Of a stretch of 64,000 bases of DNA, positions 17,360-38,255 are shown one piece after another. Source of the stretch: Laetmonice hystrix (Eukaryota); assembly GCA_965235115.1 (NCBI GenBank), contig OZ249436.1, positions 21,950,001 to 22,014,000 on the forward strand, given 5' to 3'. The position numbers and the translations under genes are program-made. Every line of letters begins with the position of its first letter. Position 1 is the stretch's first letter. The notes under the pieces are model-generated. The model did not search any database and had not been told where the DNA came from. It worked only from the letters and a program-made list of their open reading frames with translations.

Positions 17360-17457
17360 GTTTATCCATTTCTTAGGTCTTATCGCACATTTTAGTTAAA
17401 ATACCTTTTGAATCAATTATTTGCATTTCCAACGCCTGACAAATTACAAATTACCTG

Positions 17458-20400
17458 ATGGCGAAGTCGTTCAAAATCACTTCACTGAACTGTAAAGGGT
17501 TACAGAATCCTATAAAGTGTGATCTTTTGGGCAGTTATCTGGCCACTAGATCTTTTGATGTCCTGTTCCTACAAGAGACACATGTGGGTGGGGCAGAGGA
17601 TCAGGATCGTGTGGAGTCTGCCTGCGGTGGATCCGGTGTTTTTAGCTTTGGCCAGTCAGATAGTTCCGGAGTGGCGGTGATTTTTAGACGAGGCCTTGAG
17701 TATGACATTAAATCGTCTAGATGCGATGACAGTGGCAGGGTCACTTCAGTAGTGGCGGAAATAAATGGCCAGGTTTTTAATTTTATCAATATATACGCTC
17801 CAAATGTTGCTGTCCAGAGGAAAGCTTTTATTTCAGGCTTGGCTGACTTTGTCATGTTTGAAAGAGCTGTAATTTTGGCTGGAGATTTTAACTTTATAGA
17901 GGATGTCTTCATGGATAAGAAAGGTGGGCACCCAAAGAGAGGTCTGGGGGGCAAAGTGGAAATGGAGGCCCTGGCCGGCAGATTTAATTTATTGGATGTC
18001 TTCAGACATAAAAACCCGTCGAGAAAGGAATTCTCCTTTTCTGGGGCAGGAGTAGCCACCAGGCTTGACCGGTTTTATGTTACCAAGGATTTAGTCGAGA
18101 ATGTTGAGAATGTTGGGTATGTTCCCTGTTCGTATTCTGATCATAAGATAGTTGACATGCAGCTATCTTGGAAGAGTATATCTGAGGACTTTCGTCATTC
18201 AGGTCTTTGGAAATGTAATGTAACGGTTTTAAAGGATATTGATTTTGTGCGAGACATGGAAATGGAGTGGCAGGTTTTAAGCCAGTCCAAAGTCAAAGAT
18301 ATGGTTTGGTGGGAAGACTGTAAAGTCCGTTTTAAATCTTTAATAATTAAACATTCCAAGCGGTTGGCTCGACAACGTAGACAACATGTTTTGCAGCTTG
18401 AGAAGTCGATTCTTTTCTTTCAAGCATTGGCTGATGGGGGCTTGGAGGATTTGGAAGGTGTAGTAGATGGTCTTAAACTGGACTTGGAGCATTTGTTAGA
18501 AGAAAAACTGAAAGGGGCTAGGATAAGATCTCGTGTTCAACACGTGGAGAATGACGAAAAGCCTTCCCGTTTTTTCCTGAAGCAGGAGAAAATGAATGGA
18601 AGCGCGAAGGTTATTTCCGAACTAGAGGTTGAAGGTCGAGTCATAACTGATAAAATGGACATAGTGGCAGCTTGTCGTAACTTTTATAAATGTCTGTATA
18701 CGAAGGAAGACATTGATCGAGAGGTAGCACAGAAATACCTGGATTGTCTTCCTCGGTTGGCCTCTGAAGGTAGAGCAGGGTGCGAGGGGTTTTTAAGTAA
18801 GGAGGAAGTATTTTCTTCCCTAAAGTCCATGAAGGATGGGAAAAGTCCGGGTGAGGACGGCCTCCCCCAGGAATTTTATGTTGGATTTTTTCATCTGTTT
18901 GGTGGTGATTTAGTCAATGTTTTTAATCAAGCCTTTCACGCAGGCGTCTTAGGCGAGTCCCTTAGGACAGGAGTCATTAGATTGATCTGTAAAGATGTAA
19001 CAAAAAAAGAGAATTTAGGTTACTGGAGGCCTATTTCTCTTCTTAACACCGATTATAAACTTATTTCAAAGTCCATTTGTAATAGAATGGTCAAGGTTTT
19101 GGATGAAATAGTACATGAAGATCAGACGTGTGCCATTAAGGGAAGGACTATACATGATAGTTTACACTTAATTCGATCTGTCATTGACTATGCCAATGAC
19201 CATGATATACCGTGTGGGATTTTGAGTCTAGATCAGGAAAAGGCCTTTGATAGGGTTTCTCACGAGTTCCTTTTCATGGCTCTACGAAGTTATGGTTTTG
19301 GCCCCGATTTGATTAGATGGGTCCGCCTTTTGTATACGGACATTAGTTCAAGGGTGTTTGTCAATGGTATACTGTCAAATGAGTTTGAAGTCCAACGTTC
19401 GGTGAGACAAGGTTGTGGTCTGTCTCCCCTTTTATATGTTTTAGTTATCGAACCACTTGCAGTCATGATGAGAGCTGACTTCCGTATGGAAGGGCTCAAA
19501 ATCCCTGGCTCACCAAGGACGGTTCAACTTGTGCACTATGCCGACGACATGAACCCAGTTGTTACATCGGAGAGAGCAGTGAGAGTCGCTCTGGAAATTG
19601 TTAATGAGTTTGGGCGGGCATCTGGGGCCAAGCTTAACAGACGCAAGTCAAAAGGCATGTGGGTTGGGAAGTGGAGGCACCGAAAGGGTGTTTTGCATGG
19701 TATTGATTTTAGTTGCGAAAGTTTAAAGTGTCTGGGAGTAGTTTTTGGTAGACACCAAAGTGAGTGGCAAAAATTGAATTGGGAACCGCTGGTCGAGAAA
19801 TTGGCTAAAGTATTGGAAGGCTGGAAAGTTCGTAAAATGACGCTAGCAGGCAGAGCAGTTATTCTGAACACGGTGGCCTTATCCAAATTGTGGCACCAAG
19901 TCATTCATATGAATGATAAGTACATTAAGAAGTTCGAGCGTATTATCTACAAGTTTCTTTGGCCTGGTGGGGCGGAGAGGGTCCAACGAAGAGTCATGGT
20001 TCTGGATAGAGTCAGGGGAGGTGTTGGCCTCGTCGACCTTGGCTCGAAGTTGGAATCATTTCGAATTAGCCATATTGGCAAGTTATTGAGAAGCCAGCTA
20101 GCCCAGAAATGGTCCGAGTTTGCTGTTTTTTATTGTGGTTTTCAGTTGAGGGCAGAAAGGCCCGAGTTTGGGAGTAATTCTAGACCTCATGCTTGGAACA
20201 TTTCTCTCTTTTACGAAAGGTGTCTTCGGGAATGGAAGAAGTTTAATGAAAGTCAGAATGTCTCTTTGCAGAGCCTTACAAGTGGCGACATTTACAAAGT
20301 GTTGACCAAGAAATGGGTCATTGTGCCACTGGTTGCAACCAAGTCTGTGAACATTTTTGTTGATTTTAGTGTTTGTTGGAATAACTGTTGCCACTGGTTC

Positions 20401-20919
20401 CTCCCGTCGGAAATCAAAGAATTTGCCTGGCGGGTAGGGCAACATATACTCCCTGTTAATGACAAACTTCACAGGCACAACAAACGTTTACCTGTAAAGT
20501 GTGAACTATGTGGGGCGGGCAGGGAAACTTTAGATCACATTTTATTGCTGTGTCCAGTTGTACGTCCGGTTGCAAGGGAAGTGGAGGTCTTGATCTCAGA
20601 GATCTTGGATGCTCCATTTTTCCTGGACAGAGAAGTAATTTTATTCAATATTTTACCTCGGATGAGGGATCAGACACAAGGTCTAGTGTTACTTCTCTTA
20701 AATTGTTTTAAGAGGGAGGTCTGGCATCATCGTAATAGGGTTAAGTTGGGCTTGGCCAGACCTAACCCTGAGAGAGTGTGGTCGGCCCTGATGGCAGGGC
20801 TCAAGTGGAGGTTTTCTATTGATGTGTGTCGCCCTCAAAATACAAAATGGGTAGAAGCATGGGCAGTTGGAAAGGTTTGTGCGGGAAAAGTGGGTGAGGA
20901 ATTTGTCTTCCTCTTGTAG
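17458..20919 (+). CDS. ORF2 APE-RT, 1153 aa
   Basis: SLNCKGL, FLQETH, GDFN, SDH, QGCGLSP, YADD, C-terminal CCHC; lacks 2 residues (RG) relative to other copies. Confidence 0.96.
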   Translation: MAKSFKITSLNCKGLQNPIKCDLLGSYLATRSFDVLFLQETHVGGAEDQDRVESACGGSGVFSFGQSDSSGVAVIFRRGLEYDIKSSRCDDSGRVTSVVAEINGQVFNFINIYAPNVAVQRKAFISGLADFVMFERAVILAGDFNFIEDVFMDKKGGHPKRGLGGKVEMEALAGRFNLLDVFRHKNPSRKEFSFSGAGVATRLDRFYVTKDLVENVENVGYVPCSYSDHKIVDMQLSWKSISEDFRHSGLWKCNVTVLKDIDFVRDMEMEWQVLSQSKVKDMVWWEDCKVRFKSLIIKHSKRLARQRRQHVLQLEKSILFFQALADGGLEDLEGVVDGLKLDLEHLLEEKLKGARIRSRVQHVENDEKPSRFFLKQEKMNGSAKVISELEVEGRVITDKMDIVAACRNFYKCLYTKEDIDREVAQKYLDCLPRLASEGRAGCEGFLSKEEVFSSLKSMKDGKSPGEDGLPQEFYVGFFHLFGGDLVNVFNQAFHAGVLGESLRTGVIRLICKDVTKKENLGYWRPISLLNTDYKLISKSICNRMVKVLDEIVHEDQTCAIKGRTIHDSLHLIRSVIDYANDHDIPCGILSLDQEKAFDRVSHEFLFMALRSYGFGPDLIRWVRLLYTDISSRVFVNGILSNEFEVQRSVRQGCGLSPLLYVLVIEPLAVMMRADFRMEGLKIPGSPRTVQLVHYADDMNPVVTSERAVRVALEIVNEFGRASGAKLNRRKSKGMWVGKWRHRKGVLHGIDFSCESLKCLGVVFGRHQSEWQKLNWEPLVEKLAKVLEGWKVRKMTLAGRAVILNTVALSKLWHQVIHMNDKYIKKFERIIYKFLWPGGAERVQRRVMVLDRVRGGVGLVDLGSKLESFRISHIGKLLRSQLAQKWSEFAVFYCGFQLRAERPEFGSNSRPHAWNISLFYERCLREWKKFNESQNVSLQSLTSGDIYKVLTKKWVIVPLVATKSVNIFVDFSVCWNNCCHWFLPSEIKEFAWRVGQHILPVNDKLHRHNKRLPVKCELCGAGRETLDHILLLCPVVRPVAREVEVLISEILDAPFFLDREVILFNILPRMRDQTQGLVLLLLNCFKREVWHHRNRVKLGLARPNPERVWSALMAGLKWRFSIDVCRPQNTKWVEAWAVGKVCAGKVGEEFVFLL

Positions 20920-21203
20920 AATAGTTCACCCCCCCTTTTTTTTAAAGGATATGGTCGGTGCATATTGAAGGATTGTTGAAATGGTGGAGTATTCCTTGAG
21001 TGTGCAGGTTTTAATGTTTGAGTGTTGCCACTTGGGAGTTTTTAACTAGTCAACTCTAGCCTTTTTCAATTTTCCTTTTGTACTTAGTTTGCTCTTTACT
21101 ATATTGTCCGGCATGTAGGCTTTAGGGTCTGGTGCCAGGGTTATCGTTAAGAGTAGTTATTGGTTTTTAGAGTCTTTTATAAATAAAAAAAAAAAAAAAA
21201 AAA

Positions 21204-21278
21204 AAAGATTTCCGTGGGGAGGAACATTACAATGAGTCTATAGACGAATTTTTGCATCCCTGCTCTCAGAGCGGGGTA
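21204..21278 (+). pseudogene. U5 snRNA 3' half (variant b)
   Basis: Follows the poly(A) of copy C. Confidence 0.93.
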
Positions 21279-23784: not shown

Positions 23785-24131
23785 GCCGGGGAGCGGTTTG
23801 ACGCGTTGTCGCCAGACGGCCTTCAGTGCACAAGGCTATAGGTGGCGCTGTGGTCACCGTAAGTAAACCAAGGTATATGCTGATAACAGAAGTACATAAA
23901 AATATTAGCCTATGTTGTTTTATCATAACAAAGAAAAAGAAAAGTTCCTTCTTCTAAATCAGCATTTATTGTGAAAAATAGCAAGCTTGGATACCTTATC
24001 TCAGACCTAAGGCATTTTCCAGTAAGGACCCCCCCCCCCCCCAAATGAAACATTCGTAGATGAAAAGACACCATTCTGGATGAGTTAGGTACTTGAACCA
24101 CTCGACACTTCCCCTGTTCAGTAAATCAGAG

Positions 24132-24194
24132 AACTCACGTTTCTCCTCATTCCACGTATAAATCTTTCGCCTTTTACTAAAGATTTCCGTGGGG
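24132..24194 (+). pseudogene. U5 snRNA 5' part (nt ~1-63, upstream region intact), interrupted by Tx1 copy D
   Basis: AACTCACG...GCCTTTTACTAAAGATTTCCGTGGGG then Tx1 5'UTR; remainder of the gene at 30074-30148. Confidence 0.95.
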
Positions 24195-24635
24195 ATTTGG
24201 AGAATACGGAGAATTTGGGTTCATTTGGATCGATCAGTTGTTAGCTTTTGGTGGTTTTCTCCTTTTGGAGTCGTAGGTTGGTCAGTTGCCTTGAAACTAC
24301 CCTTGGGACCGGGTCATAATAGGTCCTTGGTTTCGTTTCTAGGCTGACCTTTCATACTGTCCGCGGGACCCGGAATATAATAGGTCCTTTTCTATTTGCA
24401 TCCGTGGGGACCCGGATTAAAATAGGTCTCTCGTTCGCTTGGGTATCTGGTGGTAGCTTCCAGCCCAACGTGATAATTCTTTATGTTAATCCGTAGAGGT
24501 CCGGAATAAAATAGGCCTCCTTTTCCTTTCCTTCTCTCTTCTTTCACCGTGTAAATGGTCTTAGTTGCCGTCACGGTGTAAGCCAACCTCTCCCCTTTTC
24601 AGTTAATTTTGTTTTCCGCCTGCCACCCCGGTGGC

Positions 24636-26222
24636 ATGGCGACAGGCATGGAATTTGATTCGGACGACACGGATTTGGCCCTGGTTATAGACGATAATAT
24701 GGCTTCAACAACTTCTCCTCTACCTGTTGCGAGGAGCAGTCAGGTGGCAGAAACGTCGGGCGTACAATCTGGAGGCATCTCCAAAGAGTTAGCCCATCAT
24801 AGTTTTCAGAGGGATTTGATCTTGTCCTCTGATGAGGACGGATGGTCGGTCCAGAAAAAGAAAACAAAAGGTGGTTGGAAGGTGGGAGGGAAAGTTTTCC
24901 CTACGTCGAAGCCAGATGGCGCGGCACCCCCATCCAAGACCGTTAAATTGAATTCAGGGCGCTCAAAGCCAGTAAAAGTATCGAGAGTAGGGCAAGACCC
25001 TGTCTTCCTGAAAAAACCCTTCTCAATTGAGGAGCAAAAGGTAAGGGCTGAAAGCCTCATTGAGAGAAGTGCGGTTTTTAAGTTTGTTGACCGGGGTAGC
25101 CCCATCTTGCGGGATGATTTTGCGGAGCCCTTGTCGGCACTGATCGATCTGAAGGAAGTTTTGTTTTTGGCCAGTATAGGTCGGGGTGACGAGTGGCACG
25201 TTACCCTGACAAATACTGCAGCGAAGGCAGCCCTCTTAACGAGTGATGGGTTTTGTGTGGGGGGACGTAGGTGCTACGTCAAAGAGGATGACACGCTTAA
25301 GGGTCGAGGAGGGACTTTCTGCTACCCGGTAGTGCGTGTACATTGGAATAGTCCTTCTTTACCTTTGAATGTCGTGCCAGATATCCTGGGGGTCCATGGT
25401 GACATAATATCTGATGTCTTTGAAGAGTCGTCATCATCGCGATTCCCAGGGGTGTTAACTGGGGTCCGCAAACTAGTGTTTAAAATCCCTACTAAAGATA
25501 GGAGAGCCTTTTTGGAGGATCTCCCACATTTGCTTCACCCTGAGTTTGATGGGGTGAAGTTTCGCTTGTTGGTGGTGGTCAACGGCCGGAAACCTTTGTG
25601 TTTGAGGTGCCAAAAGATGGGCCATCAATCCAAAAAATGCCTCGAGACTGAGTTCTGTTCGTTTTGTCGTCTCTATGGCCATAGTACGGGGGTGTGTCCT
25701 AGGAAGGGTTCCTATGCGGCAAAGCTCTTAAGTGTCCCTCAGCAAGAGGCAGATCCTGTCCCGCCGGAAGTACCGGTGGTGGAGGACGAGACGCCGCAAG
25801 GTGCAGCGGAGGGTGGTCAACAGGCTGAGCCTGTTGAGGTCCCACAGGGAGGTGATGGTGGAGAGGAGTCCACTCCTATCGATTTGTCTAGCGAATCCAT
25901 GGGACGGAAGTCTGAGCATCCCGTGCAAAAACATCAGGCCCCTATTAAAGTTTCCGAGGGCGACGTGGAGCCCCCCCAACCCATTGTAGAGGGCGACGTA
26001 CCTCAGAAACTCGAGCCGGCCCCTCAGCGGGCAAGTAGGAGATCGGATAGAGGGAAACGCTCTCATGTTCCCCAGGGAGCCGTAGCGGGAGCCTTGGCAG
26101 GGCTTGCTCCTAGAGAGACCTCAGCTCCGCCAACTCTGAGGGCGAAGCTAGAACCCCATCTTGGGCCCAAGAGTCTTTTGGGGGCAGAAGGGCTTAAAGA
26201 GGGCTCTTTCCAGCCTCCCTGA
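24636..26222 (+). CDS. ORF1, gag-like nucleic-acid-binding protein, 528 aa from first ATG
   Basis: CLRCQKMGHQSKKC and CSFCRLYGHSTGVC (CX2CX4HX4C x2), LTGVRKL motif, basic N-terminal and acidic/Pro-rich C-terminal regions. Confidence 0.92.
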   Translation: MATGMEFDSDDTDLALVIDDNMASTTSPLPVARSSQVAETSGVQSGGISKELAHHSFQRDLILSSDEDGWSVQKKKTKGGWKVGGKVFPTSKPDGAAPPSKTVKLNSGRSKPVKVSRVGQDPVFLKKPFSIEEQKVRAESLIERSAVFKFVDRGSPILRDDFAEPLSALIDLKEVLFLASIGRGDEWHVTLTNTAAKAALLTSDGFCVGGRRCYVKEDDTLKGRGGTFCYPVVRVHWNSPSLPLNVVPDILGVHGDIISDVFEESSSSRFPGVLTGVRKLVFKIPTKDRRAFLEDLPHLLHPEFDGVKFRLLVVVNGRKPLCLRCQKMGHQSKKCLETEFCSFCRLYGHSTGVCPRKGSYAAKLLSVPQQEADPVPPEVPVVEDETPQGAAEGGQQAEPVEVPQGGDGGEESTPIDLSSESMGRKSEHPVQKHQAPIKVSEGDVEPPQPIVEGDVPQKLEPAPQRASRRSDRGKRSHVPQGAVAGALAGLAPRETSAPPTLRAKLEPHLGPKSLLGAEGLKEGSFQPP

Positions 26223-26320
26223 GTTTATCCATTTCTTAGGTCTTATCGCACATTTTAGTTAAAATACCTTTTGAATCAATTATTTGCATTTCCAACGCCT
26301 GACAAATTACAAATTACCTG

Positions 26321-29300
26321 ATGGCGAAGTCGTTCAAAATCACTTCACTGAACTGTAAAGGGTTACAGAATCCTATAAAGTGTGATCTTTTGGGCAGTTA
26401 TCTAGCCACTAGATCTTTTGATGTCCTGTTCCTACAAGAGACACATGTGGGTGGGGCAGAGGATCAGGATCGTGTGGAGTCTGCCTGCGGTGGATCCGGT
26501 GTTTTTAGCTTTGGCCAGTCAGATAGTTCCGGAGTGGCGGTGATTTTTAGACGAGGCCTTGAGTATGACATTAAATCGTCTAGATGCGATGACAGTGGCA
26601 GGGTCACTTCAGTAGTGGCGGAAATAAATGGCCAGGTTTTTAATTTTATCAATATATACGCTCCAAATATTGCTGTCCAGAGGAAAGCTTTTATTTCAGG
26701 CTTGGCTGACTTTGTCATGTTTGAAGGAGCTGTAATTTTGGCTGGAGATTTTAACTTTATAGAGGATGTCTTCATGGATAAGAAAGGTGGGAACCCAAAG
26801 AGAGGTCTGGGGGGCAAAGTGGAAATGGAGGCCCTGGCCGGCAGATTTAATTTATTGGATGTCTTCAGACATAAAAACCCGTCGAGAAAGGAATTCTCCT
26901 TTTCTGGGGCAGGAGTAGCCACCAGGCTTGACCGGTTTTATGTTACCAAGGATTTAGTCGAGAATGTTGAGAATGTTGGGTATGTTCCCTGTTCGTATTC
27001 TGATCATAAGATAGTTGACATGCAGCTATCTTGGAAGAGTATATCTGAGGACTTTCGTCATTCAGGTCTTTGGAAATGTAATGTAACGGTTTTAAAGGAT
27101 ATTGATTTTGTGCGAGACATGGAAATGGAGTGGCAGGTTTTAAGCCAGTCCAAAGTCAAAGATATGGTTTGGTGGGAAGACTGTAAAGTCCGTTTTAAAT
27201 CTTTAATAATTAAACATTCCAAGCGGTTGGCTCGACAACGTAGACAACATGTTTTGCAGCTTGAGAAGTCGATTCTTTTCTTTCAAGCATTGGCTGATGG
27301 GGGCTTGGAGGATTTGGAATGTGTAGTAGATGGTCTTAAACTGGACTTGGAGCATTTGTTAGAAGAAAAACTGAAAGGGGCTAGGATAAGATCTCGTGTT
27401 CAACACGTGGAGAATGACGAAAAGCCTTCCCGTTTTTTCCTGAAGCAGGAGAAAATGAATGGAAGCGCGAAGGTTATTTCCGAACTAGAGGTTGAAGGTC
27501 GAGTCATAACTGATAAAATGGACATAGTGGCAGCTTGTCGTAACTTTTATAAATGTCTGTATACGAAGGAAGACATTGATCGAGAGGTAGCACAGAAATA
27601 CCTGGATCGTCTTCCTCGGTTGGCCTCTGAAGGTAGAGCAGAGTGCGAGGGGTTTTTAAGTAAGGAGGAAGTATTTTCTTCCCTAAAGTCCATGAAGGAT
27701 GGGAAAAGTCCGGGTGAGGACGGCCTCCCCCAGGAATTTTATGTTGGATTTTTTCATCTGTTTGGTGGTGATTTAGTCAATGTTTTTAATCAAGCCTTTC
27801 ACGCAGGCGTCTTAGGCGAGTCCCTTAGGACAGGAGTCATTAGATTGATCTGTAAAGATGTAACAAAAAAAGAGAATTTAGGTTACTGGAGGCCTATTTC
27901 TCTTCTTAACACCGATTATAAACTTATTTCAAAGTCCATTTGTAATAGAATGGTCAAGGTGTTGGATGAAATAGTACATGAAGATCAGACGTGTGCCATT
28001 AAGGGAAGGACTATACATGATAGTTTACACTTAATTCGATCTGTCATTGACTATGCCAATGACCATGATATACCGTGTGGGATTTTGAGTCTAGATCAGG
28101 AAAAGGCCTTTGATAGGGTTTCTCACGAGTTCCTTTTCATGGCTCTACGAAGTTATGGTTTTGGCCCCGATTTGATTAGATGGGTCCGCCTTTTGTATAC
28201 GGACATTAGTTCAAGGGTGTTTGTCAATGGTATACTGTCAAATGAGTTTGAAGTCCAACGTTCGGTGAGACAAGGTTGTGGTCTGTCTCCCCTTTTATAT
28301 GTTTTAGTTATCGAACCACTTGCAGTTATGATGAGAGCTGACTTCCGTATGGAAGGGCTCAAAATCCCTGGCTCACCAAGGACGGTTCAACTTGTGCACT
28401 ATGCCGACGACATGAACCCAGTTGTTACATCGGAGAGAGCAGTGAGAGTCGCTCTGGAAATTGTTAATGAGTTTGGGCGGGCATCTGGGGCCAAGCTTAA
28501 CAGACGCAAGTCAAAAGGCATGTGGGTTGGGAAGTGGAGGCACCGAAAGGGTGTTTTGCATGGTATTGATTTTAGTTGCGAAAGTTTAAAGTGTCTGGGA
28601 GTAGTTTTTGGTAGACACCAAAGTGAGTGGCAAAAATTGAATTGGGAACCGCTGGTCGAGAAATTGGCTAAAGTATTGGAAGGCTGGAAAGTTCGTAAAA
28701 TGACGCTAGCAGGCAGAGCAGTTATTCTGAACACGGTGGCCTTATCCAAATTGTGGCACCGTGGACAAGTCATTCATATGAATGATAAGTACATTAAGAA
28801 GTTCGAGCGTATTATCTACAAGTTTCTTTGGCCTGGTGGGGCGGAGAGGGTCCAACGAAGAGTCATGGTTCTGGATAGAGTCAGGGGAGGTGTTGGCCTC
28901 GTCGACCTTGGCTCGAAGTTGGAATCATTTCGAATTAGCCATATTGGCAAGTTATTGAGAAGCCAGCTAGCCCAGAAATGGTCCGAGTTTGCTGTTTTTT
29001 ATTGTGGTTTTCAGTTGAGGGCAGAAAGGCCCGAGTTTGGGAGTAATTCTAGACCTCATGCTTGGAACATTTCTCTCTTTTACGAAAGGTGTCTTCGGGA
29101 ATGGAAGAAGTTTAATGAAAGTCAGAATGTCTCTTTGCAGAGCCTTACAAGTGGCGACATTTACAAAGTGTTGACCAAGAAATGGGTCATTGTGCCACTG
29201 GTTGCAACCAAGTCTGTGAACATTTTTGTTGATTTTAGTGTTTGTTGGAATGACTGTTGCCACTGGTTCCTCCCGTCGGAAATCAAAGAATTTGCCTGGC

Positions 29301-29788
29301 GGGTAGGGCAACATATACTCCCTGTTAATGACAAACTTCACAGGCATAACAAACGTTTACCTGTAAAGTGTGAACTATGTGGGGCGGGCAGGGAAACTTT
29401 AGATCACATTTTATTGTTGTGTCCAGTTGTACGTCCGGTTGCAAGGGAAGTGGAGGTCTTGATCTCAGAGATCTTGGATGCTCCATTTTTCCTGGACAGA
29501 GAAGTAATTTTATTCAATATTTTACCTCGGATGAGGGATCAGACACGGGGTCTGGTGTTGCTTCTCTTGAATTGTTTTAAGAGGGAGGTCTGGCATCATC
29601 GTAATAGGGTTAAGTTGGGCTTGGCCAGACCTAACCCTGAAAGAGTGTGGTCGGCCCTGATGGCAGGGCTCAAGTGGAGGTTTTCTATTGATGTGTGTCG
29701 CCCTCAAAATACTAAATGGGTAGAAGCATGGGCAGTTGGAAAGGTTTGTGCGGGAAAAGTGGGTGAGGAATTTGTCTTCCTCTTGTAG
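26321..29788 (+). CDS. ORF2 APE-RT, 1155 aa (intact)
   Basis: All APE, RT and CCHC motifs present. Confidence 0.97.
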   Translation: MAKSFKITSLNCKGLQNPIKCDLLGSYLATRSFDVLFLQETHVGGAEDQDRVESACGGSGVFSFGQSDSSGVAVIFRRGLEYDIKSSRCDDSGRVTSVVAEINGQVFNFINIYAPNIAVQRKAFISGLADFVMFEGAVILAGDFNFIEDVFMDKKGGNPKRGLGGKVEMEALAGRFNLLDVFRHKNPSRKEFSFSGAGVATRLDRFYVTKDLVENVENVGYVPCSYSDHKIVDMQLSWKSISEDFRHSGLWKCNVTVLKDIDFVRDMEMEWQVLSQSKVKDMVWWEDCKVRFKSLIIKHSKRLARQRRQHVLQLEKSILFFQALADGGLEDLECVVDGLKLDLEHLLEEKLKGARIRSRVQHVENDEKPSRFFLKQEKMNGSAKVISELEVEGRVITDKMDIVAACRNFYKCLYTKEDIDREVAQKYLDRLPRLASEGRAECEGFLSKEEVFSSLKSMKDGKSPGEDGLPQEFYVGFFHLFGGDLVNVFNQAFHAGVLGESLRTGVIRLICKDVTKKENLGYWRPISLLNTDYKLISKSICNRMVKVLDEIVHEDQTCAIKGRTIHDSLHLIRSVIDYANDHDIPCGILSLDQEKAFDRVSHEFLFMALRSYGFGPDLIRWVRLLYTDISSRVFVNGILSNEFEVQRSVRQGCGLSPLLYVLVIEPLAVMMRADFRMEGLKIPGSPRTVQLVHYADDMNPVVTSERAVRVALEIVNEFGRASGAKLNRRKSKGMWVGKWRHRKGVLHGIDFSCESLKCLGVVFGRHQSEWQKLNWEPLVEKLAKVLEGWKVRKMTLAGRAVILNTVALSKLWHRGQVIHMNDKYIKKFERIIYKFLWPGGAERVQRRVMVLDRVRGGVGLVDLGSKLESFRISHIGKLLRSQLAQKWSEFAVFYCGFQLRAERPEFGSNSRPHAWNISLFYERCLREWKKFNESQNVSLQSLTSGDIYKVLTKKWVIVPLVATKSVNIFVDFSVCWNDCCHWFLPSEIKEFAWRVGQHILPVNDKLHRHNKRLPVKCELCGAGRETLDHILLLCPVVRPVAREVEVLISEILDAPFFLDREVILFNILPRMRDQTRGLVLLLLNCFKREVWHHRNRVKLGLARPNPERVWSALMAGLKWRFSIDVCRPQNTKWVEAWAVGKVCAGKVGEEFVFLL

Positions 29789-30073
29789 AATAGTTCACCC
29801 CCCCTTTTTTTAAAGGATATGGTCGGTGCATATTGAAGGATTGTTGAAATGGTGGAGTATTCCTTGAGTGTGCAGGTTTTAATGTTTGAGTGTTGCCACT
29901 TGGGAGTTTTTAACTAGTCAACTCTAGCCTTTTTTTCAATTTTCCTTTTGTACTTAGTTTGCTCTTTACTATATTGTCTGGCATGTAGACTTTAGGGTCT
30001 GGTGCCAGGGTTATCGTTAAGAGTACGTATTGGTTTTTAGAGTCTTTTATAATGAGAAAAAAAAAAAAAAAAA

Positions 30074-30148
30074 AAAGATTTCCGTGGGGAGGAACATTAC
30101 AATGAGTCTATAGACGAATTTTTGCATCCCTGCTCTAAGAGCGGGGTA
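30074..30148 (+). pseudogene. U5 snRNA 3' half (variant a)
   Basis: Continuation of the gene broken at 24194. Confidence 0.93.
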
Positions 30149-30231: not shown

Positions 30232-30822
30232 AATTTTATTCAATATTTTACCTCGGATGAGGGATCAGACACAAGGTCTAGTGTTACTTCTCTTAAATTG
30301 TTTTAAGAGGGAGGTCTGGCATCATCGTAATAGGGTTAAGTTGGGCTTGGCCAGACCTAACCCTGAGAGAGTGTGGTCGGCCCTGATGGCAGGGCTCAAG
30401 TGGAGGTTTTCTATTGATGTGTGTCGCCCTCAAAATACAAAATGGGTAGAAGCATGGGCAGTTGGAAAGGTTTGTGCGGGAAAAGTGGGTGAGGAATTTG
30501 TCTTCCTCTTGTAGAATAGTTCACCCCCCTTTTTTTTAAAGGATATGGTCGGTGCATATTGAAGGATTGTTGAAATGGTTAAGTATTCCTTGAGTGTGCA
30601 GGTTTTAATGTTTGAGTGTTGCCACTTGGGAGTTTTTAACTAGTCAGCTCTAGCCTTTTTCAATCTTCCTTTTGTACTTAGTTTGCTCTTTACTATATTG
30701 TCCGGCATGTAGGCTTTAGGGTCTGGTGCCAGGGTTATCGTTAAGAGTAGTTATTGGTTTTTAGAGTCTTTTATAAATAAAAAAAAATAAAAATAAAAAA
30801 TAAAAAAAAAATAAAAAAAAAA
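30232..30822 (+). mobile_element. 5'-truncated Tx1-like copy E (same 5' junction as copy B)
   Basis: GGGATGGAA-AAT-TTTATTCAAT junction identical to 14757; tail is (A)n interrupted by T. Confidence 0.93.
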
Positions 30823-31280
30823 GATTTCCGTGGGGATTTGGAGAATACGGAGAATTTGGGTTGATTTGGATCGATCAGTTGTTAGCTTTTGGTGGTTTTC
30901 TCCTTTTGGAGTCGTAGGTTGGTCAGTTGCCTTGAAACTACCCTTGGGACCGGGTCATAATAGGTCCTTGGTTTCGTTTCTAGGCTGACCTTTCATACTG
31001 TCCGCGGGACCCGGAATATAATAGGTCCTTTTCTATTTGCATCCGTGGGGACCCGGATTAAAATAGGTCTCTCGTTCGCTTGGGTATCTGGTGGTAGCTT
31101 CCAGCCCAACGTGATAATTCTTTATGTTAATCCGTAGAGGTCCGGAATCAAATAGGCCTCCTTTTCCTTCCCTTCTCTCTTCTTTCACCGTGTAAATGGT
31201 CTTAGTTGCCGTCACGACCGGTGTAAGCCAACCTCTCCCCTTTTCAGTTAATTTTGTTTTCCGCCTGCCACTCCGGTGGC

Positions 31281-32868
31281 ATGGCGACAGGCATGGAATA
31301 TGATTCTGACGACACGGATTTGGCCCTGGTTATAGACGATAATATGGCTTCAACAACTTCTCCTCTACCTGTTGCGAGGAGCAGTCAGGTGGCAGAAACG
31401 TCGGGCGTACAATCTGGAGGCATCTCCAAAGAGTTAGCCCATCATAGTTTTCAGAGGGATTTGATCTTGTCCTCTGATGAGGACGGATGGTCGGTCCAGA
31501 AAAAGAAAACAAAAGGTGGTCGGAAGGTGGGAGGGAAAGTTTTCCCTACGTCGAAGCCAGATGGCGCGGCACCCCCATCCAAGACCGTTAAATTGAATTC
31601 AGGGCGCTCAAAGCCAGTAAAAGTATCGAGAGTAGGGCAAGACCCTGTCTTCCTGAAAAAAACCCTTCTCAATTGAGGAGCAAAGGGTAAGGGCTGAAAG
31701 CCTCATTGAGAGAAGTGCGGTTTTTAAGTTTGTTGACCGGGGTAGCCCCATCTTGCGGGATGATTTTGCGGAGCCCTTGTCGGCACTGATCGATCTGAAG
31801 GAAGTTTTGTTTTTGGCCAGTATAGGTCGGGGTGACGAGTGGCACGTTACCCTGACAAATACTGCAGCGAAGGCAGCCCTCTTAACGAGTGATGGGTTTT
31901 GTGTGGGGGGACGTAGGTGCTACGTCAAAGAGGATGACACGCTTAAGGGTCGAGGAGGGACTTTCTGCTACCCGGTAGTGCGTGTACATTGGAATAGTCC
32001 TTCTTTACCTTTGAATGTCGTGCCAGATATCCTGGGGGTCCATGGTGACATAATATCTGATGTCTTTGAAGAGTCGTCATCATCGCGATTCCCAGGGGTG
32101 TTAACTGGGGTCCGCAAACTAGTGTTTAAAATCCCTACTAAAGATAGGAGAGCCTTTTTGGAGGATCTCCCACATTTGCTTCACCCTGAGTTTGATGGGG
32201 TGAAGTTTCGTTTGTTGGTGGTGGTCAACGGCCGGAAACCTTTGTGTTTGAGGTGCCAGAAGATGGGCCATCAATCCAAAAAATGCCTCGAGACTGAGTA
32301 CTGTTCGTTTTGTCGTCTCTATGGCCATAGTACGGGGGTGTGTCCTAGGAAGGGTTCCTATGCGGCAAAGCTCTTAAGTGTCCCTCAGCAAGAGGCAGAT
32401 CCTGTCCCGCCGGAAGTACCGGTGGTGGAGGACGAGACGCCGCAAGATGCAGCGGAGGGTGGTCAACAGGCTAAGCCTGTTGAGGTCCCACAGGGAGGTG
32501 ATGGTGGAGAGGAGTCCACTCCTATCGATTTGTCTAGCGAATCCATGGGACGGAAGTCTGAGCATCCCGTGCAAAAACATCAGGCCCCTATTAAAGTTTC
32601 CGAGGGCGACGTGGAACCCCCCCAACCCATTGTAGAGGGCGACGTACCTCAGAAACTCGAGCCGGCCCCTCAGCGGGCAAGTAGGAGATCGGATAGAGGG
32701 AAACGCTCTCATGTTCCCCAGGGAGCCGTAGCGGGAGCCTTGGCAGGGCTTGCTCCTAGAGAGACCTCAGCTCCGCCAACTCTGAGGGCGAAGCTAGAAC
32801 CCCATCTTGGGCCCAAGAGTCTTTTGGGGGCAGAAGGGCTTAAAGAGGGCTCTTTCCAGCCTCCCTGA
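31281..32868 (+). pseudogene. ORF1 with +1 frameshift in the A-run near 31660
   Basis: Split into the 31254-31676 and 31753-32868 ORFs; same run that is shifted in copy C. Confidence 0.88.
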
Positions 32869-32966
32869 GTTTATCCATTTCTTAGGTCTTATCGCACATT
32901 TTAGTTAAAATACCTTTTGAATCAATTATTTGCATTTCCAACGCCTGACAAATTACAAATTACCTG

Positions 32967-35900
32967 ATGGCGAAGTCGTTCAAAATCACTTCACTGAACT
33001 GTAAAGGGTTACAGAATCCTATAAAGTGTGATCTTTTGGGCAGTTATCTGGCCACTAGATCTTTTGATGTCCTGTTCCTACAAGAGACACATGTGGGTGG
33101 GGCAGAGGATCAGGATCGTGTGGAGTCTGCCTGCGGTGGATCCGGTGTTTTTAGCTTTGGCCAGTCAGATAGTTCCGGAGTGGCGGTGATTTTTAGACGA
33201 GGCCTTGAGTATGACATTAAATCGTCTAGATGCGATGACAGTGGCAGGGTCACTTCAGTAGTGGCGGAAATAAATGGCCAGGTTTTTAATTTTATCAATA
33301 TATACGCTCCAAATATTGCTGTCCAGAGGAAAGCTTTTATTTCAGGCTTGGCTGACTTTGTCATGTTTGAAAGAGCTGTAATTTTGGCTGGAGATTTTAA
33401 CTTTATAGAGGATGTCTTCATGGATAAGAAAGGTGGGCACCCAAAGAGAGGTCTGGGGGGCAAAGTGGAAATGGAGGCCCTGGCCGGCAGATTTAATTTA
33501 TTGGATGTCTTCAGACATAAAAACCCGTCGAGAAAGGAATTCTCCTTTTCTGGGGCAGGAGTAGCCACCAGGCTTGACCGGTTTTATGTTACCAAGGATT
33601 TAGTCGAGAATGTTGAGAATGTTGGGTATGTTCCCTGTTCGTATTCTGATCATAAGATAGTTGACATGCAGCTATCTTGGAAGAGTATATCTGAGGACTT
33701 TCGTCATTCAGGTCTTTGGAAATGTAACGTAACGGTTTTAAAGGATATTGATTTTGTGCGAGACATGGAAATGGAGTGGCAGGTTTTAAGCCAGTCCAAA
33801 GTCAAAGATATGGTTTGGGAAGACTGTAAAGTCCGTTTTAAATCTTTAATAATTAAACATTCCAAGCGGTTGGCTCGACAACGTAGACAACATGTTTTGC
33901 AGCTTGAGAAGTCGATTCTTTTCTTTCAAGCATTGGCTGATGGGGGCTTGGAGGATTTGGAAGGTGTAGTAGATGGTCTTAAACTGGACTTGGAGCATTT
34001 GTTAGAAGAAAAACTGAAAGGGGCTAGGATAAGATCTCGTGTCCAACACGTGGAGAATGACGAAAAGCCTTCCCGTTTTTTCCTGAAGCAGGAGAAAATG
34101 AATGGAAGCGCGAAGGTTATTTCCGAACTAGAGGTTGAAGGTCGAGTCATAACTGATAAAATGGACATAGTGGCAGCTTGTCGTAACTTTTATAAATGTC
34201 TGTATACGAAGGAAGACATTGATCGAGAGGTAGCACAGAAATACCTGGATTGTCTTCCTCGGTTGGCCTCTGAAGGTAGAGCAGAGTGCGAGGGGTTTTT
34301 AAGTAAGGAGGAAGTATTTTCTTCCCTAAAGTCCATGAAGGATGGGAAAAGTCCGGGTGAGGACGGCCTCCCCCAGGAATTTTATGTTGGATTTTTTCAT
34401 CTGTTTGGTGGTGATTTAGTCAATGTTTTTAATCAAGCCTTTCACGCAGGCGTCTTAGGCGAGTCCCTTAGGACAGGAGTCATTAGATTGATCTGTAAAG
34501 ATGTAACAAAAAAAGAGAATTTAGGTTACTGGAGGCCTATTTCTCTTCTTAACACCGATTATAAACTTATTTCAAAGTCCATTTGTAATAGAATGGTCAA
34601 GGTGTTGGATGAAATAGTACATGAAGATCAGACGTGTGCCATTAAGGGAAGGACTATACATGATAGTTTACACTTAATTCGATCTGTCATTGACTATGCC
34701 AATGACCATGATATACCGTGTGGGATTTTGAGTCTAGATCAGGAAAAGGCCTTTGATAGGGTTTCTCACGAGTTCCTTTTCATGGCTCTACGAAGTTATG
34801 GTTTTGGCCCCGATTTGATTAGATGGGTCCGCCTTTTGTATACGGACATTAGTTCAAGGGTGTTTGTCAATGGTATACTGTCAAATGAGTTTGAAGTCCA
34901 ACGTTCGGTGAGACAAGGTTGTGGTCTGTCTCCCCTTTTATATGTTTTAGTTATCGAACCACTTGCAGTCATGATGAGAGCTGACTTCCGTATGGAAGGG
35001 CTCAAAATCCCTGGCTCACCAAGGACGGTTCAACTTGTGCACTATGCCGACGACATGAACCCAGTTGTTACATCGGAGAGAGCAGTGAGAGTCGCTCTGG
35101 AAATTGTTAATGAGTTTGGGCGGGCATCTGGGGCCAAGCTTAACAGACGCAAGTCAAAAGGCATGTGGGTTGGGAAGTGGAGGCACCGAAAGGGTGTTTT
35201 GCATGGTATTGATTTTAGTTGCGAAAGTTTAAAGTGTCTGGGAGTAGTTTTTGGTAGACACCAAAGTGAGTGGCAAAAATTGAATTGGGAACCGCTGGTC
35301 GAGAAATTGGCTAAAGTATTGGAAGGCTGGAAAGTTCGTAAAATGACGCTAGCAGGCAGAGCAGTTATTCTGAACACGGTGGCCTTATCCAAATTGTGGC
35401 ACCGTGGACAAGTCATTCACATGAACGACAAGTATATTAAGAAGTTCGAACGTATAATTTTTAAGTTTCTTTGGCCAGGCCAGGAGAGGGTCCAACGGAG
35501 AGTCATGGTTCTGGATAGAGTAAGAGGAGGTGTTGGTCTGGTAGACCTCGGCTCGAAGTTGGAAGCCTTCCGAATTAACCACATTGGCAAGTTATTGAGG
35601 AGCCAACTAATCCAGAAATGGTCCGAGTTTGCTGTTTTTTATTGTGGCTTTCAGTTGAGAACAGAAAGACCAGAGTTTGGGGTTAATTCTAGACCCCATG
35701 CTTGGAACATTTCCCCATTTTACGAAAGGTGTCTTAGGGAATGGAAGAATTTTAAAGGAAATCGGAATGTTTCTTTGGAGAGCCTTACAAGTGGTAACAT
35801 TTATAAAGAGTTGACTAAGAAATGGGTCATTGTGCCACTGGTTGCAACCAAGTCTGTGAACATTTTTGTTGATTTTAGTGTTTGTTGGAATAACTGTTGC

Positions 35901-36428
35901 CACTGGTTCCTCCCGTCGGAAATCAAAGAATTTGCCTGGCGGCTAGGGCAACATATACTCCCTGTTAATGACAAACTTCACAGGCATAACAAACGTTTAC
36001 CTGTAAAGTGTGAACTATGTGGGGCGGGCAGGGAAACTTTAGATCACATTTTATTGCTGTGTCCAGTTGTACGTCCGGTTGCAAGGGAAGTGGAGGTCTT
36101 GATCTCAGAGATCTTGGATGCTCCATTTTTCCTGGACAGAGAAGTAATTTTATTCAATATTTTACCTCGGATGAGGGATCAGACACAAGGTCTAGTGTTA
36201 CTTCTCTTAAATTGTTTTAAGAGGGAGGTCTGGCATCATCGTAATAGGGTTAAGTTGGGCTTGGCCAGACCTAACCCTGAGAGAGTGTGGTCGGCCCTGA
36301 TGGCAGGGCTCAAGTGGAGGTCTTCTATTGATGTGTGTCGCCCTCAAAATACAAAATGGGTAGAAGCATGGGCAGTTGGAAAGGTTTGTGCGGGAAAAGT
36401 GGGTGAGGAATTTGTCTTCCTCTTGTAG
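32967..36428 (+). CDS. ORF2 APE-RT, 1153 aa
   Basis: All motifs present; one Trp codon deleted; divergent patch at ~35420-35816. Confidence 0.95.
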   Translation: MAKSFKITSLNCKGLQNPIKCDLLGSYLATRSFDVLFLQETHVGGAEDQDRVESACGGSGVFSFGQSDSSGVAVIFRRGLEYDIKSSRCDDSGRVTSVVAEINGQVFNFINIYAPNIAVQRKAFISGLADFVMFERAVILAGDFNFIEDVFMDKKGGHPKRGLGGKVEMEALAGRFNLLDVFRHKNPSRKEFSFSGAGVATRLDRFYVTKDLVENVENVGYVPCSYSDHKIVDMQLSWKSISEDFRHSGLWKCNVTVLKDIDFVRDMEMEWQVLSQSKVKDMVWEDCKVRFKSLIIKHSKRLARQRRQHVLQLEKSILFFQALADGGLEDLEGVVDGLKLDLEHLLEEKLKGARIRSRVQHVENDEKPSRFFLKQEKMNGSAKVISELEVEGRVITDKMDIVAACRNFYKCLYTKEDIDREVAQKYLDCLPRLASEGRAECEGFLSKEEVFSSLKSMKDGKSPGEDGLPQEFYVGFFHLFGGDLVNVFNQAFHAGVLGESLRTGVIRLICKDVTKKENLGYWRPISLLNTDYKLISKSICNRMVKVLDEIVHEDQTCAIKGRTIHDSLHLIRSVIDYANDHDIPCGILSLDQEKAFDRVSHEFLFMALRSYGFGPDLIRWVRLLYTDISSRVFVNGILSNEFEVQRSVRQGCGLSPLLYVLVIEPLAVMMRADFRMEGLKIPGSPRTVQLVHYADDMNPVVTSERAVRVALEIVNEFGRASGAKLNRRKSKGMWVGKWRHRKGVLHGIDFSCESLKCLGVVFGRHQSEWQKLNWEPLVEKLAKVLEGWKVRKMTLAGRAVILNTVALSKLWHRGQVIHMNDKYIKKFERIIFKFLWPGQERVQRRVMVLDRVRGGVGLVDLGSKLEAFRINHIGKLLRSQLIQKWSEFAVFYCGFQLRTERPEFGVNSRPHAWNISPFYERCLREWKNFKGNRNVSLESLTSGNIYKELTKKWVIVPLVATKSVNIFVDFSVCWNNCCHWFLPSEIKEFAWRLGQHILPVNDKLHRHNKRLPVKCELCGAGRETLDHILLLCPVVRPVAREVEVLISEILDAPFFLDREVILFNILPRMRDQTQGLVLLLLNCFKREVWHHRNRVKLGLARPNPERVWSALMAGLKWRSSIDVCRPQNTKWVEAWAVGKVCAGKVGEEFVFLL

Positions 36429-36704
36429 AATAGTTCACCCCCCCCCCTTTTTTTAAAAGGATATGGTCGGTGCATATTGAAGGATTGTTGAAATGGTGGA
36501 GTATTCCTTGAGTGTGCAGGTTTTAATGTTTGAGTGTTGCCACTTGGGAGTTTTTAACTAGTCAACTCTAGCCTTTTTCAATTTTCCTTTTGTACTTAGT
36601 TTGCTCTTTACTATATTGTCTGGCATGTAGGCTTTAGGGTCTGGTGCCAGGGTTATCGTTAAGAGTAGTTATTGGTAAAAAGAAAAAAAAAAAAAAAAAA
36701 AAAA

Positions 36705-36755
36705 AAAGATTTCCGTGGGGAGGAACATTACAATGAGTCTATAGACGAATTTTTG
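36705..36755 (+). pseudogene. 51-bp U5 fragment ending exactly at the Sm site
   Basis: AAAGATTTCC...GACGAATTTTTG then ATT then Tx1 ORF2 sequence. Confidence 0.9.
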
Positions 36756-37744
36756 ATTTGAAGCAGGAGAAAATGAATGGAAGCGCGAAGGTTATTTCCG
36801 AACTAGAGGTTGAAGGTCGAGTCATAACTGATAAAATGGACATAGTGGCAGCTTGTCGTAACTTTTATAAATGTCTGTATACGAAGGAAGACATTGATCG
36901 AGAGGTAGCACAGAAATACCTGGATTGTCTTCCTCGGTTGGCCTCTGAAGGTAGAGCAGGGTGCGAGGGGTTTTTAAGTAAGGAGGAAGTATTTTCTTCC
37001 CTAAAGTCCATGAAGGATGGGAAAAGTCCGGGTGAGGACGGCCTCCCCCAGGAATTTTATGTTGGATTTTTTCATGTTTGGTGGTGATTTAGTCAATGTT
37101 TTTAATCAAGCCTTTCACGCAGGCGTCTTAGGCGAGTCCCTTAGGACAGGAGTCATTAGATTGATCTGTAAAGATGTAACAAAAAAAGAGAATTTAGGTT
37201 ACTGGAGGCCTATTTCTCTTCTTAACACCGATTATAAACTTATTTCAAAGTCCATTTGTAATAGAATGGTCAAGGTGTTGGATGAAATAGTACATGAAGA
37301 TCAGACGTGTGCCATTAAGGGAAGGACTATACATGATAGTTTACACTTAATTCGATCTGTCATTGACTATGCCAATGACCATGATATACCGTGTGGGATT
37401 TTGAGTCTAGATCAGGAAAAGGCCTTTGATAGGGTTTCTCACGAGTTCCTTTTCATGGCTCTACGAAGTTATGGTTTTGGCCCCGATTTGATTAGATGGG
37501 TCCGCCTTTTGTATACGGACATTAGTTCAAGGGTGTTTGTCAATGGTATACTGTCAAATGAGTTTGAAGTCCAACGTTCGGTGAGACAAGGTTGTGGTCT
37601 GTCTCCCCTTTTATATGTTTTAGTTATCGAACCACTTGCAGTCATGATGAGAGCTGACTTCCGTATGGAAGGGCTCAAAATCCCTGGCTCACCAAGGACG
37701 GTTCAACTTGTGCACTATGCCGACGACATGAACCCAGTTGTTAC

Positions 37745-38245
37745 TGTGGTATATTTATCTGAACTTTACACAACAGACTATACTTACCAACCAGATAACA
37801 TGGACATGCCTGGACACTGTTATCAGACCTTTGTTCTCAGTCATGGTTAGAGATAACCACACTATCAAAGGAACAAGTCCAAACACACATACCACTGTCA
37901 TGTAATCGAGCTCTTGTGTAATGAAGCATAATCATTACATCTAAGGAAAGATAGAACACCTCCCGCAGTAATGTAAGCACACCATGTCAGCTCCAATCTT
38001 TCATGACCACATACGTTTCCTTATGCAAACAAATAAGTATCATGCACCCTCCTCCACTACAGAGAGGACCCATTTGTAATCACCTGACTAATGATAAGCA
38101 TTTTAGTATATATAGTACAACAATGTAATAGAAAGAGAGAGAGAGATAGACAGAGACGAGAACGCACGACGCGACTGTCTATCGTGACGAATAAAACCTC
38201 AGCACACAACAAGTCTGTCTTCCCTTCCATGTTCACAACATAACA
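37745..38245 (+). repeat. 5' LTR (501 bp)
   Basis: TGTGG...TAACA; TATATA near 38107, AATAAA near 38190; matches the 3' LTR. Confidence 0.96.
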
Positions 38246-38255
38246 TGGTGGAGAA
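38246..38255 (+). promoter_or_regulatory. Primer binding site, probably tRNA-Ala
   Basis: TGGTGGAGAA directly after the LTR, complementary to a ...TTCTCCACCA tRNA 3' end; only ~10 nt of match. Confidence 0.65.

Follow-up and report, generated by a model that had tools for sequence, protein, structure and literature searches.

The 64,000-nt stretch of the Laetmonice hystrix genome analysed here, referred to as the window (assembly GCA_965235115.1, contig OZ249436.1, 21,950,001-22,014,000, forward strand), carries part of a tandem array of U5 small nuclear RNA (snRNA) genes together with many copies of a poly(A)-tailed long interspersed nuclear element (LINE) that are embedded in these genes. 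Five complete U5 genes were found with the Rfam model RF00020, all with the same score (Table 1), and the first of them, which the initial annotation had already read as U5, was recovered as intact at 6512-6633. The same scan detected a U5 5' half at 24141-24241. The U5 genes are part of a 4018-bp array unit that holds two of them, a and b, and a 17.6-kb higher-order repeat is present in the window as well.

Table 1. U5 genes, element copies and open reading frames (ORFs) in the window, and H2B-joined relatives elsewhere in the genome. Positions refer to the window unless a chromosome is given; a slash marks a junction; TSD, target-site duplication; aa, amino acids.
Feature	Position	Strand	Description
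Intact U5 snRNA gene, type a	6512-6633	+	Rfam RF00020, 91.7 bits, model 1-117
Intact U5 gene, type b	7558-7679	+	Rfam RF00020, 91.7 bits
Intact U5 genes	10530-10651, 11576-11697, 14551-14672	+	Rfam RF00020, 91.7 bits each
Copy A	1-3588	+	5' end outside window; ORF2 frame open; tail 3566-3588 joins U5(b) 3' half
Copy B	14757-15319	+	547-bp 3' fragment plus tail
Copy C	15333-21206	+	Full length; ORF2 open (17458-20919, 1153 aa), ORF1 broken; tail joins U5(b) 3' half
U5(a) nt 1-65 upstream of copy D	24131-24195	+	Complete loop-I hairpin; 5' TSD copy 24179-24195
Copy D	24196-30076	+	Full length, 5881 bp including 20-nt tail
ORF1 of copy D	24636-26222	+	528 aa; predicted two tandem RRM-like domains (~aa 143-320), CCHC knuckles aa 322-335 and 339-355
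ORF2 of copy D	26321-29788	+	1155 aa; AP-type endonuclease aa 10-229, reverse transcriptase aa 516-761 (YADD present), zf-RVT aa 982-1038
U5(a) nt 49-122 downstream of copy D	30074-30147	+	3' TSD copy 30074-30090; first three A's common with tail
Copy E	30232-30822	+	Same event as B, identical 5' junction; B-E 99.26%
Copy F	30837-36707	+	Full length; ORF2 open (32967-36428), ORF1 broken
Copy G	36759-48901	+	5'-truncated at element position 3245; tail joins U5
Copy H	48953-51598	+	Tandem duplicate of G event; 5' junction U5 nt 49-99 + GATT/TGAAGCAGG common to both
Copy I	51613-52103	+	First 490 bp of full-length element; standard 5' junction U5/TTTGGAG
Old-subfamily fragment, ~45 nt	52640-52698	+	19-nt tail joins U5 at standard site
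Copy J	52859-55362	+	Second subfamily, 89% to D; 5'-truncated; junction ..AAAA/TTCCGTGG
Copy K	55812-56271	+	Old remnant, 85-87% to D, different 3' end; 10-nt tail at standard U5 site
H2B-joined sister family	L052 C3:22545500-22555400; L053 C5:13646500-13656400; L059 C13:7651000-7660900	- (L052)	Pfam Histone E 1e-7

The junctions between the element and U5 are highly uniform. The motif AAAGATTTCCGTGGG occurs 17 times in the window (16 exact matches and one with two mismatches), always on the plus strand, against a chance expectation of 0.16; none of 100 shuffled sequences attained this number. Five of these sites belong to the intact genes and one to the 5' junction of copy D, and the remaining 11 stand directly behind A-runs. 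The corresponding poly(A) tails end at 3588, 15319, 21206, 30076, 30822, 36707, 48901, 51598, 52698, 55362 and 56271, and every one of them runs into the 3' half of U5 in U5 sense orientation. Ten of the junctions are exact, with A-runs of 10-30, and the tail of copy J joins at ..AAAATTCCGTGG, a few nt downstream of the standard site. Thus, tail ends, motif count and A-run check reproduce what the initial annotation had described, namely 11 tails entering the U5 3' half in sense orientation, ten of them on one site and one shifted.

Copy D lies within a U5(a) gene whose counterpart in the paralogous repeat is uninterrupted. U5 nt 1-65 joins TTTGGAGAATACGG at 24196, and the tail (30057-30076) is followed by GATTTCCGTGGGGAGGAAC, the remaining U5 resuming from GATTTCC. 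The duplicated target is (AAA)GATTTCCGTGGGGA, that is, 14-17 bp depending on the assignment of the three A's. The earlier description of copy D as an element with intact ORF1 and ORF2 that splits a single U5 gene and is flanked by a short TSD holds, the two frames being open over 528 and 1155 aa. Within the window, both ORFs are open in copy D only; C, F and the visible part of A retain ORF2 alone.

The proteins predicted for copy D are those of a LINE with an apurinic/apyrimidinic (AP)-type endonuclease. In ORF2, Pfam recognised PF03372 (Exo_endo_phos, E 9e-12), RVT_1 (E 8.6e-36) and zf-RVT (E 8.7e-9) but no restriction-like endonuclease. Its best solved relative is human L1 ORF2p (8sxt, E 4e-73), with which it is colinear over 6-863 (versus 9-875), and the endonuclease motifs N, E, Y, D-x-N, D and D-H are conserved in the alignment to the L1 endonuclease (1vyb/8sxt). 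R2 proteins match ORF2 over the reverse transcriptase only (E 7e-21). The nearest protein in a collection of 5.8 billion is 39% identical. For ORF1, Pfam gave nothing above threshold, a zinc knuckle appearing only at E 0.14. Two CX2CX4HX4C knuckles can nevertheless be read from the sequence, the first of which (C322, C325, H330, C335) is invariant in five of five aligned ORF1s of related families. The AlphaFold model of ORF1, of moderate confidence (mean pLDDT 47, core 60-76), contains two beta-alpha-beta-beta-alpha-beta domains, and its top Foldseek matches are all tandem-RRM proteins (E 4e-7).

The 5' untranslated region (UTR) of copy D (24196-24635) includes four hairpin motifs of 22 nt. 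These copies of GGGACCCGGAATATAATAGGTC lie within 24304-24517 and each is able to form a hairpin of 5-6 bp; judged by eye, copy four differs from copy two at two stem pairs with the pairing preserved, and two copies are retained in a subfamily with 82% identity (L060, L061). The repeats may represent a promoter or a protein-binding element. An Rfam E-value scan of 24100-24700 returned only the U5 half and no ribozyme or other known RNA family. We also considered gene-restoring mimicry, in which the 5' end of the element would complete a U5-like RNA, and rejected it, with 50.1 bits for U5 plus element versus 49.7 bits for the U5 half alone.

A considerable part of the copies in the window goes back to duplication of the array. 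Copies A and C are 99.94% identical over 3563 nt and are duplicates via the higher-order repeat. At its 5' end, copy B meets the array at unit position 209, 87 bp beyond an intact U5(a), and 885 bp of the unit are missing there; copy B is identical to the corresponding part of the adjacent copy C in 544 of 544 nt. Copy F is probably an older duplicate of the copy C event, because F, A and C have 17 derived sites in common, against D. Since A and C, B and E, and G and H are array duplicates of each other, the 11 tails correspond to about 7-8 insertion events. The distinct 5' junctions on which the initial annotation had relied are therefore not general: one junction is common to B and E and a second to G and H, and A and C are higher-order-repeat copies. 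Its second observation, that two subfamilies and an old remnant occupy the same site, is in agreement with our comparison, in which at least three sequence subfamilies (100%, 89% and 85-87%) were distinguished at the U5 site, J being the one at 89% and K the one at 85-87%, with J displaced by a few nt. The family erodes the edge of the U5 gene array, and part of the window can be regarded as a graveyard of nested insertions.

To place the window in the context of the host genome (627 Mb, 35 contigs), the 3' UTR of copy D was used as a query, and 40 of 62 candidates were scored with each flank being read. In 20 cases the 3' end is joined to the U5 3' half and in 16 to unrelated DNA; in the other four, the match stops short of the tail. 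Twelve of the U5-joined copies are in the array around the window on chromosome C1, and the other eight are found at C20 (two), C3 (two), C1:30.97 Mb, C29 and C18 (two). The genome contains 135 exact copies of the 24-nt loop-I target, at least 17 of which belong to element 5' junctions. Exact junctions of the form A10/GATTTCCGTGG number 23 genome-wide, compared with 0 for the reversed-pattern control. The exact 5' junction, U5 ..CCGTGGGGA/TTTGGAGAATA (U5 nt <=65), was found at 17 places, with one G fewer in copies A and C. Among them are array junctions of the 82%-diverged subfamily, located on C3, C1:22.66 Mb, C10 and C13, where the 5' flanks of most copies were judged by pattern count and two stretches of 901 bp were read. 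The 3' UTRs are 97-100% identical between chromosomes (C1, C3, C20, C29), whereas beyond U5 their flanks either cannot be aligned or show 88-92% identity, which argues for separate insertions rather than copies of one locus. This agrees with the position of the initial annotation that the copies do not all derive from one insertion by duplication, as the U5 loci on C1, C3, C20, C29 and C18 differ in their flanks.

In three arrays (C3:6261088-6300399, C1:22659757-22673317 and C13:27923596-27931951), the repeat unit contains a U5 5' half that is joined to the 5' end of the 82%-diverged subfamily. This suggests that the U5-element junction of this subfamily has itself been amplified by tandem duplication.

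Taken together, we consider it likely, with a probability of roughly 85%, that the element is an L1/Tx1-group LINE of 5.9 kb with a poly(A) tail, that it is nested among Keno-like elements, and that it selects U5 nt 48/49 as its target. The preference for U5 is strong, not exclusive. As 20 of 36 resolved copies sit on one nucleotide of about 135 sites in 627 Mb, neither chance nor mere retention would be sufficient to explain it. The Methods of PMC4494074 speak of target specificity when one sequence type makes up more than 20% of the flanks of a family; here U5 accounts for 20 of 40 scored and 20 of 36 resolved flanks, and the family thus qualifies. Several points weigh against our interpretation. 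Many U5-embedded copies are duplicates from array amplification, so that the raw count exceeds the number of events, and 16 of the 36 resolved copies, on 12 chromosomes, have flanks other than U5, which leaves the preference far from absolute. Moreover, the searches with 5' UTR and ORF2 were partly scored (40 of 2356 candidates for ORF2), and the counts obtained from them are lower bounds: seven of seven 5' UTRs with at least 98% identity lie in U5 arrays, and eight of nine full-length ORF2 matches at this identity are without a stop, seven of the eight in U5 arrays. The initial designation of the family as U5-specific can thus be kept in the sense of a strong preference, with no off-site tail within the window, and has to be given up for the genome as a whole, where the tally of 20 against 16 comes close to, without reaching, the majority of non-U5 flanks that the initial annotation had regarded as incompatible with it.

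A few chance insertions into the U5 array, multiplied by unequal crossing-over or segmental duplication, could in principle yield a similar accumulation without any choice of target. The near-identity of A and C, the common 5' junctions of B and E and of G and H, and the 17.6-kb higher-order repeat are what such a process would leave behind, and the junction of the 82% subfamily is repeated at least eight times in the C3 array. However, the elements lodged in U5 loci of five chromosomes have 3' UTRs with 97-100% identity, whereas their flanks beyond U5 either cannot be aligned or are about 90% identical; three subfamilies use the same site; and the U5(a) split by copy D has an intact counterpart in the paralogous repeat. 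As the sole cause, array multiplication is largely refuted, and we regard it as very improbable. Just as little weight can be given to a retention bias, in which insertion would be near-random and L1-like at TTT/A, and copies in the U5 array would survive because they are harmless there. Indeed, about half of the independent events fall outside U5, at A-rich positions like CCAA^CAAG and AAAAAA^GATTT, and the off-target copies are all truncated. Yet the 4-kb unit is mostly spacer, and all 11 tails lie at one site (J a few nt off) in the same orientation, as do 23 of 23 exact junctions, and about 135 target sites in the entire genome take up more than half of the resolved copies. Because of this single-nucleotide precision, retention alone would be insufficient. 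The joints are least likely to be snRNA/LINE chimeric retrocopies formed by template switching onto U5 RNA, as known for mammalian U6/L1: U5 sequence does abut the element 5' end, but the U5 5' half is continuous with the upstream array spacer (unit 3675-4018), the 3' half behind the poly(A) runs on into array spacer, the two halves overlap by the 14-17 bp duplication as in an interrupted gene and not as in a retrocopy at a random locus, and the element 5' end adds 0.4 bits to the U5 model score. A complete snRNA plus a LINE fragment within one TSD at an unrelated locus, the hallmark of such retrocopies, was not what we found.

Targeted insertion at U5 would proceed along the following lines. 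Most likely, the predicted AP-type endonuclease first nicks U5 gene DNA on the bottom strand at 5'-GGAAATCTTT^AGTAAAAGG-3', which corresponds to ACT^AAAG on the top strand, between U5 nt 48 and 49 at the 3' edge of loop I. The CTTT-3'OH freed in this way would anneal to the poly(A) of the element and serve as primer for reverse transcription, as the initial annotation had proposed for TTT; the three A's that tail and target have in common are consistent with priming of this kind. The top strand would then be cut after nt 65, giving rise to the duplication of 14-17 bp and to the exact 5' junction. As U5 nt 1-65 is kept at the 5' junction, the latter is still a target, and head-to-tail pairs accumulate. 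Three such pairs, B and C, E and F, and H and I, are present in the window, and in each of them GATTTCCGTGGG(G)A lies between a tail and the full-length 5' end that comes next: the tail of copy B is followed by GATTTCCGTGGG and copy C, that of copy E by GATTTCCGTGGGGA and copy F, and that of copy H by the duplicated target and copy I. Reuse of the 5' junction in these pairs shows that targeting does not require U5 from nt 66 onwards.

Off-target nicks would occur at A-rich sites as well, leaving copies that are 5'-truncated and have a long duplication or none. Of the off-target copies, four were examined; each lacks its 5' part, and the duplication measures 99 bp or 254 bp or could not be found. 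Truncation points in the family were determined at element positions 452, 595, 3108, 3245, 3374 and 5310. We infer that precise second-strand cleavage and full-length insertion take place at U5 only, in which case the lineage would be carried by full-length copies residing in U5 tandem arrays that comprise over 100 genes. The specificity itself is presumably set by the endonuclease. The family is probably active at present.

By its predicted architecture, the U5 element belongs to the L1/Tx1 group. An N-terminal AP-type endonuclease, a reverse transcriptase and a C-terminal zinc-binding motif are colinear with L1 ORF2p, and poly(A) tail, variable 5' truncation and target-site duplications are all present. 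Tx1-clade ORF1 proteins (ORF1p) have one or more RRM domains plus one or more CCHC zinc knuckles, and the predicted RRM domains and knuckles of the window ORF1 match this description; ORF1p of L1 is of the coiled-coil/RRM/CTD type. Membership in the Tx1 clade has indirect support from the nesting of the family among Keno-site families; the ESM Atlas, the cluster member names and the source names gave generic reverse transcriptase or endonuclease labels without a clade name. The novelty of U5 targeting that the initial annotation had considered is not given: the legend of Fig. 3 in PMC4494074 (Kojima 2015), the one paper found to mention Tx1 together with U5 snRNA, lists 'U5, U5 snRNA' among the targets of Tx1 families, based on Repbase. 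That family has the same clade label and the same target gene; the window element may be this family, an orthologue of it or unrelated to it. In the available excerpts of PMC4640811, a later paper of the same group, the snRNA-targeting transposons reported are only Keno and Utopia (U2), Dada-U1 and Dada-U6, and the U5-target Tx1 family therefore appears to be a catalogue entry without a written description. A Tx1 family with U5 as target is thus already known, and the window family is a further case whose ORF2 is at most 39% identical to proteins of the 5.8-billion collection.

Among known systems, Keno (Kojima and Fujiwara 2004, cited after PMC4494074, PMC4640811 and PMC6136364) is a Tx1-clade LINE that is specific for U2 snRNA genes; PMC6136364 gives TCTGTTCTTATCAGTTTAAT as its 3' target sequence. 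Like the window family, Keno combines an AP-type endonuclease with a reverse transcriptase and a poly(A) tail, enters a tandem, Pol II-transcribed snRNA gene in sense orientation at a single nucleotide and destroys the gene copy concerned; the two differ in their targets, U2 for Keno and U5 nt 48/49 for the window family. Identity with Keno (U2 at ..^TCTGTTCTTATCAG) was rejected, as the window family joins U5 and only the sister families L055 and L056 join U2. From the site shared with these sister families, we infer a relatedness to Keno itself. Human LINE-1, whose ORF2p structures (8sxt, 8uw3; endonuclease 1vyb) include the best solved relative, likewise produces a nick whose 3' end is a T-run capable of pairing with poly(A). 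L1 is without target specificity at the level of genes, whereas the window family has it, and the ORF1p of L1 differs in type from the predicted RRM-plus-CCHC-knuckle protein of the window. The U2 LINE Utopia also inserts into a spliceosomal snRNA gene and builds up tandem arrays there, and according to the available part of PMC4640811 some of its families are weakly specific with off-target copies at look-alike sites; in contrast to the AP-type enzyme of the window element, Utopia encodes a PD-(D/E)xK restriction-like endonuclease (PMC4640811). A site-specific LINE with a restriction-like endonuclease (R2, Utopia, NeSL) was accordingly rejected for the window, its endonuclease being N-terminal and AP-type with no restriction-like domain in Pfam.

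Relatives with 37-38% ORF2 identity exist in the same genome, and their tails join other genes. In a tree of 57 ORF2s, eight sequences from this genome form one clade (Shimodaira-Hasegawa-like approximate likelihood ratio test, SH-aLRT, 99): copy D with its U5 target, three H2B-joined, one U1-joined and two U2-joined sequences and L057, described below. Within this clade, the U5 and H2B families are sisters (97). L055 and L056 join U2 at A(n)/GTATCTGTTCTTATCAG, within 3 nt of the Keno site TCTGTTCTTATCAGTTTAAT (PMC6136364), and the U2 junctions of sisters from this genome and from metagenomes have the form A(n)/(GT)ATCTGTTCTTATCAG. The U1-joined relative (L054, C1:71068000-71077900) is represented by one locus with A(n)/GTGATCGAGCC; for U1, the review text consulted here names only the DNA transposon Dada-U1. 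The tails of the H2B-joined family (ORF2 37% identical) enter the H2B coding sequence about 19 nt after the ATG at A(n)/CGAAGGGAGCTAAGAAGGCC.., and the flank continues through the coding sequence and the 3' stem-loop into the next H2B copy. The ORF2 end branches of the H2B loci are 0.003 or shorter, and the aligned H2B flanks differ at many positions; at least in L053, the H2B copy is frameshifted. Our limited literature search, which included the accessible part of PMC6136364, found no report of a LINE targeting histone genes. L057 (C3:25141500-25151400, minus strand) groups with the U2-targeting families and joins GTATATTTCATTAAACCTCTGGTGCC.., a flank without any Rfam match at E<=1.

Further relatives came from metagenomes, where 80 of 573 confirmed loci were kept and junctions were identified by motif scan. 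A junction with U2 at the Keno site was found in seven of the 80 loci and one with U1 in a single locus, L082, at the same place as in L054 (A(n)/GTGATCACTAAGG). In the tree that includes metagenome sequences, the window family is nested among U2-site families. One metagenome locus, L099 (Ga0224510_10005461, one copy), encodes an ORF2 with AP-type endonuclease and reverse transcriptase, and its tail GAAAAAGAAAAAA joins TTTACTAAAGATTTCCGTGC.., which is U5. Its ORF2 is 31% identical to that of the window family, and its tail meets U5 within loop I, at a position that precedes the insertion point of the window family by 7-8 nt. L099 falls into another subclade; forcing it together with the window family, a grouping chosen after tree inspection, costs 290.6 log-likelihood units (approximately unbiased test, p-AU 1.2e-8). 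Because of this placement in a different subclade, U5 targeting seems to have arisen at least twice.

Two other metagenome loci also contain U5 next to a LINE. In L109 (Ga0126337_10013743, 5230-5376, one copy), the end of the LINE reads ..AATAAACAAAA, after which U5 sequence sets in at about nt 15 (CCTTCTGCACGAAAAAATCTTTCGCC..); this may constitute a third U5 insertion site. In L102 (OFEQ01000009.1, 460-1010), two U5 genes are located upstream of a related LINE, the second of which breaks off after about nt 80 and continues into AGCTTTGCGCAGT. We take AGCTTTGCGCAGT to resemble the start of U4 snRNA, and the locus may thus be an snRNA-snRNA chimera next to a LINE.

The junctions of the sister families raise the possibility, to which we would give slightly less than even odds, that one clade has repeatedly retargeted its AP-type endonuclease, to U2 at the Keno site, to U1, to U5 and to the H2B coding sequence in tandem H2B arrays, and that an unrelated lineage has arrived at U5 again 7-8 nt away. 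If true, this would provide a naturally occurring set of closely related enzymes whose targets have switched, one of these targets being a protein-coding gene. Outside copy D, we consider this local radiation of sister families, one of which joins a histone coding sequence, as the most interesting result. Site-specific LINEs are natural models for targeted, RNA-templated insertion of DNA. In the window family, the proposed nick and second-strand cut would be precise to the nucleotide within an almost invariant sequence, and the limit of the required target can be read from the DNA, because U5 from nt 66 on is dispensable, as the reused 5' junctions show. The off-target rate is measurable as well and amounts to about one event in two. 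With intact copies and the U1, U2 and H2B sisters at hand, a comparison of their endonucleases could show which residues determine specificity.

Two other repeats were noted in the window. Between 56776 and 62319, on the minus strand, 465 bp of U5 array spacer (unit 3173-3637) are present three times in inverted orientation with a period of 2548 bp, and each of the two 2548-bp repeats has an ORF of 260 aa (57815-58597 and 60363-61145) with no Pfam match. Copy G is split by a 9.5-kb Ty3/Gypsy-type long terminal repeat (LTR) retrotransposon at 37745-47246, for which Pfam recognised gag, RVT_1, RNase H and integrase; its gag ORF extends over 38498-39562 and its pol ORF over 39883-44439 (1518 aa; protease, reverse transcriptase, RNase H and integrase).

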